This document shows, piece after piece, positions 16,998 to 44,080 of a DNA stretch of 64,000 nt (the stretch's first letter is position 1; each line of letters begins with the position of its first letter). The position numbers and the translations under genes were made by a program. The stretch is from the NCBI GenBank assembly GCA_001821395.1, contig MHLM01000001.1:144021-208020 (forward strand). Reading direction: 5' to 3'. Below the pieces are notes generated by a model. It ran no database searches and was not told the origin of the DNA. It saw only the letters and a list, made by a program, of their open reading frames with translations. Origin of the DNA: Candidatus Lloydbacteria bacterium RIFCSPHIGHO2_02_FULL_50_18. Its GTDB lineage: Bacteria > Patescibacteriota > Minisyncoccia > Phycocordibacterales > UBA6899.

Positions 16998-17909
16998 CTA
17001 CGATGCGCTCACGATATCCTTGGGTTCCCCCGAAGTGGGTGTGGACTGTGCAACACCTGATGAAACTGCGGTAACAAGCTCAAGGATGCGCGATGCCGGA
17101 TAGATTGCCAGACCTGTCCCCACCAGAGGATTCACCACAATACCAACCGCCTGTGCATCGAGATTGACCACGAGAGCGCCGGCATAATCCTCCGGAATCT
17201 TTGGATTCGTGTCTATCGCGGTGACGTGGTCGGGGGTCGTCGTGCTTTCGCTTTTCGTATAATGGAATTTCGAAAGTGTCCCCTTAAAAACCCCCGCTCC
17301 GTCCGCTCCACCCAACGCAATGATCGTTTGCGCTATTTTCGCATCAGTCTGCCGCCCAAAGGTCACGGAATCGAATATATCGGAAGGTATCGTGTCACTG
17401 ATCTTGAGCAACGCGAGCGGAGTCTTCCCGATCGCATCGTGCTTGATCGGTACCGCCAGATAGGATCTCTCTCCGATGGTAATGCGATAGCTGGCGAGTA
17501 CAACAGACTCAACGGAGATGCTCTTTTGGTCTGCAACAATCACACCATCACGAGATACCACAAATCCCGTTGCGAGCGGAGGAGTGCCTGTCGCCTCTGC
17601 CGCAGCAAAGATGAGCGCGATACGAGGCTGATTTTTTTCCACAGCAGCAACAATAAAATCGTCTTCCTTGGCATAGATGGTTACCTCCTTCGTGATAGTT
17701 GTGACCGGCCTTACCGTCGAACTTTCCGGGGTACTCGATCCTGTTACGACACGTTCGATCGTGCGCTCTACTACGCGATTGACTGTTTGCGTCAGCGTCG
17801 GCGGTGCCTCTTCGAGCATAGCAACGGTGATCACTCCCGTGCCAACAGAAACCACGAATGAGGTAAGCATCGTGAGAAGGATCATCTGTTTGTTATTGAG
17901 CTCATCCAT
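16998..17909 (-). CDS. Membrane-anchored secreted protein with an S1/HtrA-like segment (GFVVSRDGVIVADQ, LALLKI). The canonical His/Asp/Ser catalytic motifs are not evident, so it may be a pseudo-protease.
   Basis: Weak motif similarity only. Confidence 0.35.
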   Translation of the reverse strand: MDELNNKQMILLTMLTSFVVSVGTGVITVAMLEEAPPTLTQTVNRVVERTIERVVTGSSTPESSTVRPVTTITKEVTIYAKEDDFIVAAVEKNQPRIALIFAAAEATGTPPLATGFVVSRDGVIVADQKSISVESVVLASYRITIGERSYLAVPIKHDAIGKTPLALLKISDTIPSDIFDSVTFGRQTDAKIAQTIIALGGADGAGVFKGTLSKFHYTKSESTTTPDHVTAIDTNPKIPEDYAGALVVNLDAQAVGIVVNPLVGTGLAIYPASRILELVTAVSSGVAQSTPTSGEPKDIVSAS

Positions 17910-21787: not shown

Positions 21788-23293
21788 ATGGCTGAAAAAA
21801 ACACAACATCATCCGTAGAACGCTCGCCAATCGTCGTCATTATGGGTCACGTTGACCACGGAAAATCGACGCTTTTGGACTACATCAGGAAAACGAATAT
21901 CGTAGCTACTGAAGCGGGTGGTATTACCCAGCATATTTCCGCATATGAGGTAACCCACAAGGACGCAAAAGAAACGGAAAAGAGGATCACCTTCTTGGAC
22001 ACGCCGGGGCACGCAGCATTCCAAAGTATGCGCTCACGCGGGGCACGCGTTGCCGACATTGCCGTACTCGTCGTATCTGCGGAAGATGGAGTAAAGACTC
22101 AAACGATAGAGGCGCACAAGGCGATCGTAGAGGCGAAGATCCCCTACATCGTAGCAATCAACAAGATTGACAAGCCAAATGCGAATATTGAGAAAACGAA
22201 ACAGACACTCGCAGAAGCTGAGATATATATCGAGGGATACGGCGGCGACATTCCCTTTGTCCTGATCTCCGCAAAAACAGGGCAAGGAGTTCCGGAGCTG
22301 CTCGACATGATGCTGCTCATCGCAGAAATGAACGAACTCACCGGTGATACAAGCATCCCCGCAAAAGGTGTGATCATTGAATCTAAGATGGATCCTAAAA
22401 AGGGTATTATTGCGACCGTCGTGATCACTGACGGCACATTAAACAAAGGGATGTTCGTCGTTGCCGAAGGGGCAATGACGCCCGTACGCGCGATCGAGAA
22501 CTTCTTGGGAAAACCTCTGGAATCGGCAACATTCTCGTCCCCAATTCTCCTTTCAGGATGGACTGCCGTACCGAACGTCGGGGCAGAATTCACTGCACTG
22601 GAAAACAAAAAAGGGGCGGAGGCCTTGGTGGGACAAGCAAATCTCGTTAAAAAGATCGTTGTCAAAGACTCGTTACCGGCTGATGGAGTGCTCTTTCCCA
22701 TCATCATCCGTGCCGATGTTGCTGGGTCGCTTGAAGCTATTGTTTCCGAGATAGGAAAACTGAAACATGAGCGGGTCATATTAAAGGTCATCCAAAAGGG
22801 CGTCGGGGCCGTCAATGAAAGCGACATCAAACTTGCCTTTGGAACGAACAATCCCGTCGTGATCGCTTTTCACACAAAGGCTGACACGCCTGCGATCGAT
22901 CTCGCTGCACGCACCGATGTCACCATCCATCAATTTGACGTCATCTATAAGCTAACCGAATGGCTTGAGGAAGAGATCAAGCGTCGCGCGCCGCATATCG
23001 AAATGGAAGAAAGACTCGGAGAATTCCGCATCATTCGCTGTTTCAGCCAACAAAAAAATCTTCAGGTTGTCGGTGGCGCCGTTCTATCGGGAAAAATGGT
23101 CAACGGTGCGAGGGTGAAGATCATGCGCCGCGAGGTTGAGATTGGGGAAGGAAAGGTCGTTGAACTGCAGTCACAAAAAGTGAAGGCGGCCGAAGTTCTT
23201 GAGGGCCATGAATGCGGGCTTCAGGTAGAATCCAAATTCACCCTTGCTGAACGCGATGTGCTTATCCCCTATATTATTGTCAAAAAACAATAA
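21788..23293 (+). CDS. infB: Translation initiation factor IF-2, short form ([17 protein letters not shown]).
   Basis: GTPase G1-G3 motifs. Confidence 0.9.
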
Positions 23294-23431
23294 CATGATG
23301 GAACTTTCCCAAATGGCGAACTTCTTTGTTGCGGGTCCCCAGCGACTCGGTCAACATATCGGAATATGTCTTCCTCGTCCCCTTCCCCGCGTCGCGAATT
23401 TCATCCATTTGAGTAAGTTCCACTGCAAAAT

Positions 23432-41122: not shown

Positions 41123-41791
41123 TTACGCATGGAGAAGCGGTTCAAGGACGATAACGTCCCCTTCCTTTCCTTCAAGGTCTTTCTTTTTCAATATCAATTT
41201 TTCTATTTGTACGACATCTTCCGCTCCTGCTTCTTTCAAAAATGCTTTCAGTTGCTTGTCGTTCTTATCTTCAAAATCAACGGGAATGATAAGCTTGGCG
41301 TCGAGCATGACCGCGATCTTGCCGGCATCAGAAGGGGTCAACACATCACCTCCCGATATCGGAACAACGAGAATATCAACTTCCCCGATACCCTCGATGG
41401 TCTCAGGCGATAGCTCTGTCCCCGCAAGCGCTCCAAGGATGCAGATCCGGATGCCTTCGAGCTCTACTGTATATATAGTATTCAACAGACCGGCCTCTCC
41501 GACGGATTTCGGTGATAAAAAACCGGAGACGGCGACTCCGCCTATCTCATACTCCCCCGGACCGGACACAACGAACGGCACCTTGTCGCCATGCGAAAGG
41601 TTTTCTACTCCGTTCAATTCCGGGTGATTCATCGATACCAAACCGATGCGTGCAGCAAAACGGATCGGCTTCATGCGCGACTGTTTTCCAAAAGGATTCG
41701 CAGCAATAACAGTATCTCCTTGAGCGATCTTTATGAACTGGCCTCCATGGTACGTGATTATCATGCGGTTGAGTATAACAATTTCATTCAA
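41123..41791 (-). CDS. MBL-fold metal-dependent hydrolase (COG2220-like; N-terminus MIITYHGGQFIKI).
   Basis: Family-like N-terminus. Confidence 0.5.
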   Translation of the reverse strand: MNEIVILNRMIITYHGGQFIKIAQGDTVIAANPFGKQSRMKPIRFAARIGLVSMNHPELNGVENLSHGDKVPFVVSGPGEYEIGGVAVSGFLSPKSVGEAGLLNTIYTVELEGIRICILGALAGTELSPETIEGIGEVDILVVPISGGDVLTPSDAGKIAVMLDAKLIIPVDFEDKNDKQLKAFLKEAGAEDVVQIEKLILKKKDLEGKEGDVIVLEPLLHA

Positions 41792-41889
41792 AAAGGGAAA
41801 GACAAAAACAGTTGAAAAATAGCGACATATTGTGTGTAATGCACTAGTCTAATGGGTATTGACATTATACACATATAATGCTATTACTC

Positions 41890-42220
41890 TAGAAGAGGTG
41901 ATTGGAATTCCCACAAGGGTTGCTGGCAAAAGAAGGACGAGCATGATGCTCATCTGTGCCGTGCAAACCATCGACTGCCGCGTATGACGCGCCCCGTCCC
42001 CGACAACATGTAGGGATGCGGCCAAAGACTGCGGCGCGCGGGTTCATATCCGTCACCATTTCGTCGCCGTCGGGCGACAGCACGGACCAAGGGAGTTGCC
42101 TTCCCCTGGTCCACAACAATGAAAGGGGCAGGATGCACCACATTCGCGATCCCACCTGATCTTTCCCACCTCCCCCAAACCGCTCGCGAACCCCATTCAA
42201 TTGGTAACGCATATGAGCTT
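41890..42220. ncRNA. GC-rich, ORF-poor island with many stable hairpins (ggaccaaggg...cccctggtcc, gtcgccgtcgggcgac). Candidate structured RNA such as RNase P RNA or tmRNA; class and strand not resolved.
   Basis: Compositional contrast with the AT-rich flanks and lack of a credible ORF. I could not convincingly align the P4/CR-I motifs by eye. Confidence 0.3.
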
Positions 42221-42955
42221 CAAAAAAAGCTGATCATCAATCAGCACTGCGCCGAGTCGACTGCATGGAAAGAGATGAGCCCCGAAAGGATAGTAAAGAG
42301 AAACGCTTCGTAAAAAGCAGATCTCCTGGCCGAGCTCCACACCAAGTGCAAAGATTCACAGCAGACAGGCCACGCCATAAAAACGCGTGGTCTTCTTTTA
42401 TTTACCAAAACTTGACAGTATTTGAGGAGATGGATAGATTAAGGCCTCGTGGTAAGCACTGAGCAATCAGACACAAACCTTGTTCATTCCCTTTGCTAAG
42501 GAGAGAGTATCGATGAAACGCAGTCAACAGAGTTTTATTTAAACGCCAGCCGGCCGGTGCTCGAAATAGGTTTGTCCCCAAAAGGACTCCCGTATTGAGC
42601 GCGAAAGCCCAAAGCCCCCACCCTAAAAGTGGGGGCCAATTTTTTACATAGGGTACCCCTCTGTACATAGGGTACTCCTATGTAGCAGTGACTTGCATAA
42701 TTGGGACTCATTTGATAGTCTTTTGGCACAACTGAATATTAACAACACTATTGGGATTAACCCGTCATCAAGTAAGGGGGTTCCTCAAAATGGATGAAGT
42801 TCGAGACGTGGAGAAAGGGACGAGGAAGACATATTCATATATGTTGACCGAGTCACAGAGGCTCCACAACGAAGAAATTCGCCATTTTTAGAAACACTCA
42901 CTGAGACGACCCCCAAGAGGAACAGTTATCTGCCCTCACGCAGATTTTTATTTTT

Positions 42956-44080
42956 ATGACTACAATAGAAGAAGATGAAGTGATCATCATTGGCGGCGAG
43001 CAAGTGCTCGACCCTGGCCACGTGATGACGAAGTATATGGCGGAGATCGTGAAGCGCCCGGAGCCGGGTGAGATTGTTGAAGGTCCCGTCATCAAAGTAG
43101 ACAAGAAGGCTGTGTATATCAACATGCCTCCTTACGGCATCGGTATCATCTATGGCCGTGAGTACATGAACGCGCGCGACCTCGTGAAGCACATGAACAT
43201 CGGTGACGTCATCACCGCAAAGGTCGTTGAGAGCGAGAATGAGAATGGTTACGTCGAGCTTTCACTCAAGGAAGCACGTCAGTCGCTTATCTGGGCCGAG
43301 GCGGAAGATTACGTACGCAAGAAAACCGTACTGGACCTTATGGTAAAGGATGCGAACAAGGGCGGACTCATGCTCGACTGGCAGGGTATCTCAGGATTCC
43401 TTCCCGCATCACAACTCTCGGGAGATCATTACCCTCGCGTCACGGATGGTGACAAGGATAAGATCCTCGAGGAATTGAAGCGACTCGTTGGAGAGAAGCT
43501 TTCGGTCGTGATGATCACCGCGGTTCCAAAGGAAGGCAAACTCATCTTCTCGGAGAAGGAGCAGAATCAGAAAGAGAAGGAAGAGATCGTCGCGAAGTAT
43601 CGACTCGGCTCGATTGTCGAAGGAGAGATCACCGGCATCGTCGACTTCGGTGCATTCATGAAGATTGAGGAGGGTCTCGAGGGGCTCATCCATATCTCAG
43701 AGATGGATTGGGGTCTTGTGGACGATCCACGCAAGCTCTTCAAGGTTGGTGAGCATGTGAAAGCGCAGATCATCGAGATCAAGGATAATAAGGTTTCGCT
43801 TTCCGTAAAGGTTCTAAAAGAAAACCCATGGAAAAGTGCTGAGAAGAAATATAAGAAAGGTGATGTCGTGAAAGGTGTTGTTATCAAATTCAACAAGTAC
43901 GGCGCACTTGCCTCCATTGAGGAAGGTGTTGCGGGACTCGTCCATGTTTCGGAATTCGGCACAGAAGAGAAGCTTCGCGCCGCGATCGAACTTGGCAAGG
44001 TCTATCCGTTCACCATTACCCTCTTTGAGCCAAAGGACCAGCGCATGACGCTCTCGTTTACGACAGAGAAGAAGGCATAA
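42956..44080 (+). CDS. rpsA: 30S ribosomal protein S1, short 4-domain form.
   Basis: Repeated S1 domains. Confidence 0.75.
   Translation: MTTIEEDEVIIIGGEQVLDPGHVMTKYMAEIVKRPEPGEIVEGPVIKVDKKAVYINMPPYGIGIIYGREYMNARDLVKHMNIGDVITAKVVESENENGYVELSLKEARQSLIWAEAEDYVRKKTVLDLMVKDANKGGLMLDWQGISGFLPASQLSGDHYPRVTDGDKDKILEELKRLVGEKLSVVMITAVPKEGKLIFSEKEQNQKEKEEIVAKYRLGSIVEGEITGIVDFGAFMKIEEGLEGLIHISEMDWGLVDDPRKLFKVGEHVKAQIIEIKDNKVSLSVKVLKENPWKSAEKKYKKGDVVKGVVIKFNKYGALASIEEGVAGLVHVSEFGTEEKLRAAIELGKVYPFTITLFEPKDQRMTLSFTTEKKA

Follow-up and report, generated by a model that had tools for sequence, protein, structure and literature searches.

The DNA analyzed here, called the window below, is a 64-kb stretch from Candidatus Lloydbacteria, and positions 41890-42220 of it form an island rich in guanine and cytosine (GC) that is referred to as the element. 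With a probability of about 0.7, this island is the core of a stand-alone plus-strand gene for a highly structured noncoding RNA present in a subset of Candidatus Lloydbacteria. The element lies inside the 1191-nucleotide (nt) gap between a gene for an MBL-fold hydrolase (Pfam PF13483; 41123-41764, minus strand) and a gene for an S1-domain (rpsA-like) protein (42956-44080, plus strand), which is where a preliminary description of this DNA had placed it. The source assemblies that carry the contig have zero called genes in the gap. The order S1 gene, gap, MBL gene, small open reading frame (ORF), and gyrA is kept across Lloydbacteria; in the window, an ORF of 114 amino acids (aa) and gyrA stand to the left of the MBL gene. 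The start of the MBL gene was put at 41764, and not at the listed ORF start at 41791, because the homologues are 213 aa long, and its protein is 100% identical to the MBL-fold hydrolase of the metagenome-assembled genome 'Candidatus Lloydbacteria RIFCSPHIGHO2_01_FULL'. On the other side, the S1 gene, which is without a Shine-Dalgarno site, begins approximately 740 nt past the conserved core of the element and 550 nt past its terminator, behind two further promoters.

The GC content of the element is 0.574, against 0.481 for the window, and falls at the 99.2th percentile of all 330-nt windows. It equals the level of the 11 transfer RNAs (tRNAs) in the window, whose mean is 0.569, and the markedly raised GC of the preliminary description is borne out. 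Mechanical translation of the element yields a 107-aa ORF on the minus strand (41889-42212) and two ORFs of 67 and 64 aa on the plus strand, none of which has a Pfam match. The 107-aa ORF had 0 similar proteins among 5.8 billion, even at an expectation value (E value) of up to 10, and a 114-aa plus-strand ORF called in homologue B (locus L001) matched itself alone. Furthermore, the gene callers disagree, reporting a plus-strand gene in B (114 aa), a minus-strand gene in homologue C (87 aa), and none in the window. Between the window and L001, its closest relative and about 90% identical to it here, there are seven indels, of 1, 1, 1, 2, 1, 4, and 14 nt. A protein-coding role was rejected for either strand because of the frameshifting indels, the missing Pfam matches, and the zero protein homologues; mechanical ORFs do exist, yet none is credible, as had been said at the outset.

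Seven full homologues are available, with the window counted as A: B is L001 (L002, L003, and L088 are near-identical), C is L004 (L005 is the same), D is L009, E is L099, G is L105, and H is L106. Two partial homologues, L098 and L107, correspond to 5' ends. All of them lie at the same locus and in the same orientation, next to MBL proteins that are 68-100% identical to that of the window. A profile hidden Markov model (HMM) finds A-D alone, and nhmmer, started from one sequence or from a four-sequence profile, missed the homologues E, G, and H, which were first spotted by eye and then found by a covariance model. The first such model covered the region of the hairpins Hp1-Hp3 (Table 1), was seeded with A-D, and found the unseeded homologues H (E value 3.7e-6) and E (E value 0.005), each at the expected spot; the unseeded G was found with filters off (E value 0.033), again where it was expected. 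In the rebuilt seven-sequence model all seven score between 2e-17 and 7e-6, the three late additions, now seed members, falling between 2e-9 and 7e-6, and this model found nothing further when 695 kb of sequence from related loci and the remainder of the window were searched. A pattern scan of the Joint Genome Institute (JGI) metagenomes returned another copy of B (L001 type) and two chance matches. Separately, a stretch resembling the purine box described below plus Hp3 (GGAAGGGGGCAAGGTGCATAACATTCGCG) was seen after a coding gene and before a terminator at L008:181-225 and L018:590-635; its E values are 0.63-0.95 and its fold is different, and it was treated as chance or a remnant.

Transcription of the element is predicted to depend on a near-consensus promoter of the sigma-70 type, promoter P1. 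The arrangement TTGACA-N16/17-TGnTAnnnT occurs in all nine loci that hold the element or its 5' part, pointing away from the MBL gene at a distance of approximately 95-125 nt from the MBL start. The automated promoter scan demands a T at the sixth position of the -10 box, and promoter P1 was therefore not picked up by it. The transcription start is predicted at about 41893-41895. At the other end, L004 (C) has an intrinsic terminator of its own about 40 nt after Hp3, which gives an RNA of about 300 nt and defines the core, whose conserved extent in the window is about 41897-42218. In A, B, and H the sequence runs on through Hp4 and a less GC-rich 3' extension to a shared terminator, where the RNA of the window would probably end at a length of about 510 nt, and the transcripts of D and G seem longer. 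The 3' extension is shared with B and, in the blocks UCGACUGCAUGGAAA and GCAGACAGGCC, with H; the terminator recurs in both, with G.U changed to G-C.

Two observations concern variation within the population of the window. In the strain variant L092, eight single-nucleotide polymorphisms at 42293-42320 reproduce the L001 version of the hairpin in the 3' extension, which points to strain-level variation or recombination in this part of the predicted RNA. The loci L090-L097, which belong to the same population, are short contigs from other samples that break inside the gap, at positions equivalent to 42073, 42321, 42462, 42515, and 42848 of the window.

Table 1. Coordinates of the element, its predicted transcription signals, and its modelled helices in the window
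Feature	Position	Strand	Description
Promoter P1	41859-41887	+	Predicted; TTGACA-N17-TGnTATTAC, near-consensus, sigma-70-type; -35 TTGACA 41859-41864; extended -10 TGc 41879-41881, ending the 17-nt spacer; -10 TATTAC 41882-41887
Predicted primary transcript	41893-42405	+	About 510 nt; bounded by promoter P1 and the first plus-strand intrinsic terminator
P1 helix, 5' strand	41897-41906	+	GGUGAU-U-GGA; partner 42049-42057
P1 helix, 3' strand	42049-42057	+	UCC-GUCACC; closes the 5' domain of about 160 nt
Pa helix	41918-41969	+	GGUUGC-UGGCA ... UGCCG-U-GC-A-AACC, enclosing the small hairpin GAGCAUGAUGCUC; within the 5' domain
Hp1 hairpin	42063-42078	+	GUCGCC GUCG GGCGAC; -12.0 kcal/mol, z -3.7
Hp2 two-part hairpin	42084-42112	+	GGACC-A-AGGGA / UCCCC-UGGUCC, conserved loop GUYGCCUU; -17.8 kcal/mol, z -3.4
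Single-stranded ACAAC	42113-42117	+	Directly 3' of Hp2
Purine box	42121-42128	+	GAAAGGGG (GAAAGGAG in relatives); Shine-Dalgarno-like; GAAAGG(A/G)G
Hp3 hairpin	42125-42152	+	Upper stem GGAUG/CAUUC (42131-42145); lower stem GGG..GC / GC..UCC
Mini-ORF	42133-42159	+	AUG..UGA, 4 nt after the purine box; MHHIRDPT, putative translation
Hp4 three-part hairpin	42182-42218	+	GCUC-GCG-AACC-CCA-UUCAAU-UGG-UAA-CGC-AUAU-GAGC; -10.0 kcal/mol
3' extension	42219-42362	+	GC 0.475; includes the hairpins GCUGAUCAUCAAUCAGC and GCUUCGUAAAAAGC
Intrinsic terminator	42363-42403	+	Stem GUC-GGCCACGCC/GGCGUGGUC-GAC-like, then UUCUUUUAUUU; -15.9 kcal/mol, z -4.6

The modelled fold begins with the P1 helix, in which the 5' end of the RNA pairs with a segment just before Hp1. 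The pairing strands differ from lineage to lineage, reading GGUGAU/GUCACC in A, GGUGAC/GUCACC in B, GGUGC/GCACC plus AGUG/CACU in C, UGGAAGUGCGA/UCGCGCUUCCA (11 base pairs, bp) in D, and GUGACG/CGUCAU plus GAA/UUC in H. The best duplex partner of the 5' end sits in this place in A, C, and D, and the second best in B. The position of the Pa helix is occupied by hairpin-type helices of differing sequence in A, B, C, D, and G, and inspection by eye suggests a similar helix in L098 and L107, the two partial homologues.

The two helices best supported by covariation are Hp1 and Hp2. They are the pairs gtcgcc/ggcgac and ggaccaaggg/cccctggtcc of the preliminary description, both of which are real and stable (as DNA, the strands of Hp2 are GGACCAAGGG/CCCCTGGTCC). 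All six pairs of Hp1 are formed in 100% of the seven sequences and three of them change on both sides (GC/CG, CG/GC/GU, and CG/AU), while in Hp2 eight of the ten pairs change on both sides, 89% of the cells pair, and the hairpin folds alone in every homologue. The sequence ACAAC that follows is found in five of the seven full homologues (A, C, D, E, and G) and is ACACC in B and not present in H; an optional additional hairpin occurs here in C, D, and E. The lower stem of Hp3 takes in the 3' part of the purine box. Four of the ten Hp3 pairs change on both sides and 93% of the cells pair, with clear folding in A, B, C, and H and weak folding in D, E, and G. Beyond a variable stretch comes Hp4, which occurs in A, B, D, E, G, and H and is absent in C. 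Its outer helix is different in each lineage, its middle helix is GCG/CGC or GCA/UGC, and its inner helix CCA/UGG is replaced by CCG/CGG, CCCA/UGGG, or GUCCG/CGGGC.

The covariation was tested on the 26 modelled pairs of Hp1-Hp3 in the seven sequences, by using the alignment derived from the model. Of the 159 cells, 93.1% pair, compared to 76.1 ± 2.1% when the 3' partners are shuffled, and 15 of the 26 pairs change on both sides, compared to 7.4 after shuffling; in neither case did any of 500 shuffles reach the observed value. Sliding the register by 1-3 columns lowers the pairing to 36-53%. As a control for the fitting of the alignment to the model, each hairpin of each homologue was folded on its own, and Hp1, Hp2, and Hp4 formed in every homologue that has the region concerned. 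Furthermore, P1, Pa, and Hp4 vary in sequence between the lineages, and yet in every lineage their two strands match as complements. When 41893-42405 is constrained to the modelled helices, its energy is -167.4 kcal/mol, within 8 kcal/mol of the unconstrained minimum (-175.2 kcal/mol). Taken over seven sequences, each from a species-level lineage of its own, in a model-fitted alignment, the helices are kept by compensatory substitutions, which is the general mark of a structured noncoding RNA; with homologues at the same locus and coding excluded, the suggestion that the island is a structured RNA is supported. Two additional elements of structure were tried and rejected: a pseudoknot between GCCUU of the Hp2 loop and AAGG of the purine box would have at most 4 bp and shows no covariation in E, G, and H, and the internal loop of Hp4 has no G.A/A.G signature of a kink-turn.

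The preliminary description had named a remnant of a GC-rich acquired gene as the finding that would speak against an RNA, and such a decayed coding gene, or a decayed mobile element, might be functionless and conserved simply through close kinship. A GC content above the genome mean, a patchy distribution among the relatives, and a variable gap in which assemblies break and strains differ all agree with this explanation. On the contrary, neither long ORF has a similar protein among the 5.8 billion searched. No match was found in phage or plasmid records, and none to two conserved motifs in viral contigs; no repeats or terminal inverted repeats were detected, and the element is present as a single copy in the window. 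A mobile or viral origin was rejected because there is neither a phage, plasmid, or viral-contig match nor a second copy in the window. Lineages whose MBL proteins are 68-77% identical to that of the window keep the helices by double substitutions in sequences that have passed beyond nhmmer detection. Helices kept in this way despite diverged sequence are a mark of selection on RNA structure and not of drift, and a functionless remnant is quite improbable.

The helices also bear on the strand, as nine cells of the supported helices hold a G.U or U.G pair, which on the minus strand would become A.C. The RNA is assigned to the plus strand because these pairs agree with the promoter and the terminators. 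A functional RNA on the minus strand, antisense to the one proposed, would have a slightly better whole-region fold (z -2.4, against -1.9 for the plus strand) and could make use of two terminator-like sites scored on that strand, 42245-42229 and 41954-41936. The first of these, however, would sit at the start of such an RNA and not at its end, no conserved minus-strand promoter was found upstream, and the promoter and terminators of all lineages face the plus strand; together with the nine mismatched cells, this makes an antisense RNA highly improbable.

As for the identity of the RNA, the preliminary description had offered RNase P RNA or transfer-messenger RNA (tmRNA) as candidates, pointing to loose minus-strand likenesses to the RNase P regions CR-I/P4 and CR-V. 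A divergent RNase P RNA, tmRNA, or other universal RNA, such as 6S RNA or the signal recognition particle (SRP) RNA, could indeed look like the element, as a length of about 300-500 nt, a high GC content, numerous helices, and a strong promoter are all typical of such RNAs. The likenesses, however, fall on the strand opposite to the RNA. The cmscan search that had been proposed (RNaseP_bact_a/b, tmRNA, 6S, SRP, and riboswitches) gave no match in the element. At gathering thresholds, Rfam 15 reported 11 tRNAs and nothing else in the window; with permissive filters and E values of up to 10, the region 41700-43000 gave nothing in the element and junk matches at the terminator near 42614. No gathering-level match occurred in 20 related loci, and at E values of up to 10 five homologue loci had no consistent weak match and no RNase P.

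The same outcome was obtained family by family. The RNase P models (RF00010, RF00011, and related ones), with their CR-I to CR-V regions and P4 core, do not match, and no P4-type conserved regions could be found. ARAGORN reported 11 tRNAs and no tmRNA in the window, and neither ARAGORN nor Rfam found the tRNA-like domain and tag-peptide frame of a tmRNA; the element has no tRNA-like end. The models of 6S, SRP, riboswitches, T-boxes, OLE, ROOL, GOLLD, raiA, and HEARO gave no match in the element at E values of up to 10. Identities as RNase P, tmRNA, 6S, SRP, or a riboswitch were accordingly rejected on the basis of Rfam and ARAGORN, in the window as in six homologues. In addition, a universal RNA is unlikely because many close relatives have no copy of the element here, unless it has moved, and it was undetected elsewhere in about 700 kb of related loci, so that this identity is barely credible. 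The island itself is real. Very probably it represents a new, lineage-restricted gene for a structured noncoding RNA, and it is neither RNase P RNA nor tmRNA.

The most conserved unpaired element of the RNA is the purine box, which reads AAGG(A/G)G in six of the seven homologues and AAGGAA in H, while the surrounding sequence diverges. In sequence it amounts to an extended Shine-Dalgarno motif, which would pair with the 3' tail of a canonical 16S ribosomal RNA. Most genes of the window have no ribosome-binding site, with a clear Shine-Dalgarno sequence in about 4 of the 38 genes checked and several that look leaderless; those that have a site use GGAGG, AGGAG, or AAAGGAG at 4-8 nt before the start codon. 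The box of the element is followed by an AUG at 4-6 nt in A, B, C, E, and H and by a UUG in D and G. The ORFs that begin there have 3-10 codons, with the exception of E, and would encode MHHIRDPT in A and B, MHSIRSPTK in C, MVHIHPP in H, UUG-QRIRDQPAD in D (or a 30-aa ORF from an AUG), and UUG-KRP in G, each before a stop codon; E instead has an ORF of 39 aa in a different frame and departs from the window by a 1-nt indel. Frame, length, and peptide are kept among A, B, and C alone, and partly in D and H. Between A and C (L004) the mini-ORF has eight base differences, four of which are synonymous third positions (CAC/CAU, CGC/CGU, CCC/CCG, and ACC/ACG). The bases of the mini-ORF coincide with the stem and loop of Hp3, and the conservation of the AUG is no proof of translation because the AUG forms part of the Hp3 stem.

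These features suggest the main rival to a trans-acting RNA, namely, a structured leader with a mini-ORF that would act as an mRNA-like, self-regulating unit in the style of a leader peptide or attenuator. A folded 5' sensor of 230 nt would control access to the Shine-Dalgarno-like box and to the start codon in Hp3, and translation of, or stalling on, the ORF of 3-10 codons would control termination or the downstream fold. The spacing of box and start codon in the seven homologues, the synonymous differences from L004, the sequestration of the 3' half of the box in the lower stem of Hp3, as in translational riboswitches, and the ending of several peptides with Pro or Pro-Pro just before the stop codon are all in keeping with it. 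What is missing is something to regulate: the transcript holds no downstream gene, L004 terminates about 40 nt past the mini-ORF, and in the window the terminator at 42363-42403 precedes the separate promoter of the next unit at 42412. A classical leader or riboswitch role is unlikely because no gene follows on the transcript. Moreover, neither the length of the peptide (3 to 39 codons) nor its frame is conserved, as the indel of L099 illustrates, the conserved bases are explained by the stem and loop of Hp3 without translation, the 4-nt spacing from box to AUG is at the short end of the range used by the genes of the window, and no known riboswitch aptamer matches. Overall, such a self-regulating unit is an unlikely explanation, although more plausible than a remnant, an antisense RNA, or a universal RNA. 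A role as a CsrA sponge was also considered, as CAGGAUG in the window resembles the CsrA-binding consensus, and was dropped because the GGA is GAA in the relatives.

The preferred reading, a noncoding RNA, leads to a proposal about its function. The best guess, held with moderate to low confidence, is a stable scaffold RNA that would act in trans and contact the 30S ribosomal subunit through the purine box. The RNA would serve as a scaffold or a partner for binding and not as the leader of a downstream gene; this mechanism as a whole is the weakest step of the interpretation. The purine box GAAAGGAG would be positioned by Hp2 on one side and Hp3 on the other, shortly before the start codon in the Hp3 stem, and its most likely partner would be the 30S subunit, by way of the anti-Shine-Dalgarno tail of the 16S rRNA. 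This contact would either lead to translation of the 3-10 codon mini-ORF, stabilizing or remodelling the RNA, or make the RNA a decoy. Chances are about even that the element is the first representative of an unrecognized class of large, independently transcribed structured RNAs, specific to the Lloydbacteria of the Candidate Phyla Radiation (CPR), that would work as a ribonucleoprotein (RNP) or as a ribosome-docking RNA by means of the conserved GAAAGGAG box and conserved hairpin loops.

Several points weigh against this interpretation. At least nine lineages of comparable relatedness (L006, L007, L008, L011, L012, L013, L100, L102, and L104) have no copy of the element at this locus, so that it is either dispensable or has moved elsewhere in their genomes. 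The strand and the 5' and 3' ends of the RNA are deduced from sequence signals. The alignment used for counting pairs is fitted to the model, which inflates the pairing, and there are seven full sequences, all from related organisms. Hp3 is weak in three of the seven homologues, and the interior of the 5' domain is unalignable across lineages. The folding energy of the whole region is only about 2 standard deviations below that of shuffled sequences, and thermodynamics alone could settle nothing. With respect to function, docking to the ribosome depends on a single motif of 6-8 nt that has its 3' half tied up in Hp3, the Hp3 stem itself constrains the AUG, and the expected match to the anti-Shine-Dalgarno tail refers to the canonical 16S sequence, as the window holds no 16S gene.

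The rest of the gap contains a second small transcription unit. It spans 42412-42645 on the plus strand, with a promoter TTGACA-N17-TAGATT (42412-42440), a terminator (42614-42645), and a GC-rich tail; it includes a conserved UUGUUC..AACC..AAGGAG stretch and a tiny ORF (42513-42542, MKRSQQSFI), and it has no Rfam match. In most lineages without the element, a promoter like promoter P1 precedes some other small transcript. Orthologues of the second unit stand directly behind the first promoter in L006, L007, L011, L012, L013, L102, and L104, none of which has the element, and the tiny ORFs of the orthologous units differ (MKYTQLMSLLV, MKSFTSTK, MQTIYTITNQN, and MKILMACSSCSISQS). In L104 (1650-1830, reverse strand), the first promoter drives another GC-rich long hairpin of about 170 nt, GGAUGAGCGCUCGGA...UCCGAGCGUCUCAUCC followed by a U-run, which precedes the tiny-ORF unit in the gap upstream of the MBL gene. 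The locus seems, from these comparisons, to be a hot spot for lineage-specific small RNAs.

For the region 42560-42700, the preliminary description had reported a strong terminator and an echo of the element's hairpin. The terminator is the one that ends the second unit, at 42614-42645, whereas the supposed echo is unrelated to the element: it is an imperfect palindrome with a direct repeat at 42645-42684 on the plus strand (ACATAGGGTAC occurs twice). This palindrome lies just upstream of a promoter-like TTGCAT-N17-TAGTCT and of the strongly conserved leader GGCACAACTGAATATTAACAACACTATTGGGATTAACCCG of the S1 gene, and 42645-42765 looks like an operator with an rpsA leader. Inside the S1 gene leader, 42788-42887 (plus strand) is one copy of a repeat of about 100 nt whose other copy is at 23311-23410 (minus strand), with 85% identity. 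Compared with L001 and L004, the copy in the gap is inserted sequence. Each of the two opens with ATGGATGAA and might code for the N-terminal part of a small protein, which for the copy in the gap would read MDEVRDVEKGTRKTYSYMLTESQRLHNEEIRHF before a stop codon.

Upstream of the MBL gene (41764-41790, minus strand), a conserved -10-like TATACT ends 7 nt before the ATG and there is no Shine-Dalgarno sequence, so that the MBL mRNA is probably leaderless; a similar pattern is found at the genes with first codons at 17909 and 37452, and possibly at 21788. The divergence of the flanking genes had raised the question of a replication origin, which was rejected, as the cumulative GC skew falls from one end of the window to the other without reaching a minimum at the gap, and DnaA boxes show no enrichment (10, compared to 13.7 expected).

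The CPR, or Patescibacteria, make up a large share of bacterial diversity, with genomes of about 1 Mb that contain very little noncoding DNA; to our knowledge, almost nothing has been described of their regulatory and structural RNAs beyond the universal ones. An RNA gene of about 0.3-0.5 kb whose fold is kept past the reach of profile-HMM detection probably does something that these reduced cells pay for. If the interpretation is true, the element would be among the first lineage-specific functional RNAs described for the CPR, a tractable new class for structural and RNP studies, a marker for a Lloydbacteria subclade, and a test case for whether such organisms use Shine-Dalgarno-bearing RNAs to address the ribosome where most genes seem to be without a Shine-Dalgarno sequence or a leader. 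Its narrow range so far, 7-9 lineages, limits the impact for now.

Compared to known systems, the element resembles RNase P RNA of types A and B in length, GC enrichment, and a strong stand-alone promoter, and in the pairing of its 5' strand with a distant 3' segment that closes a multihelix domain. It differs in having none of the five universally conserved regions, no P4 pseudoknot, and no covariance match at E values of up to 10, in not being universal within Lloydbacteria at this locus, and in lying on the strand opposite to the motifs that had been tentatively assigned. With leader-peptide attenuators and translational riboswitches (the ermC, cat, and cmlA leaders and tnaC) it shares a box like a ribosome-binding site and a start codon partly buried in a hairpin, followed by an ORF of 3-10 codons that in some lineages ends with Pro before the stop codon; unlike these systems, it has no regulated downstream gene, its mini-ORF is conserved neither in frame nor in length, and its folded upstream domain of 230 nt is far larger and matches no known aptamer. 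Like 6S RNA and the Ms1-type RNAs, it is a stand-alone, noncoding gene with a near-consensus promoter and a product predicted to be probably abundant, but it has no long rod-like hairpin with a central bubble, no match to the Rfam 6S model, and nothing that links it to RNA polymerase.

Other points of comparison are the raiA motif RNA, OLE, ROOL, and GOLLD. The element has no sequence or structure match to them in Rfam 15, its host belongs to the CPR and is not a Firmicute or an Actinobacterium, it is without recognizable associated protein genes, unlike OLE with its adjacent oapA, and it possesses a Shine-Dalgarno-like box and a start codon, which those RNAs are without. In its general features, however, it is like all four: it is independently transcribed, as predicted here from its promoter and terminator, has a length in the range of 300-600 nt, and is much more GC-rich and more folded than its surroundings. 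It combines many covarying helices with a few unpaired nucleotides that are strictly conserved, its phylogenetic range is narrow and patchy, and its unit contains no neighboring gene for which it could be the leader.

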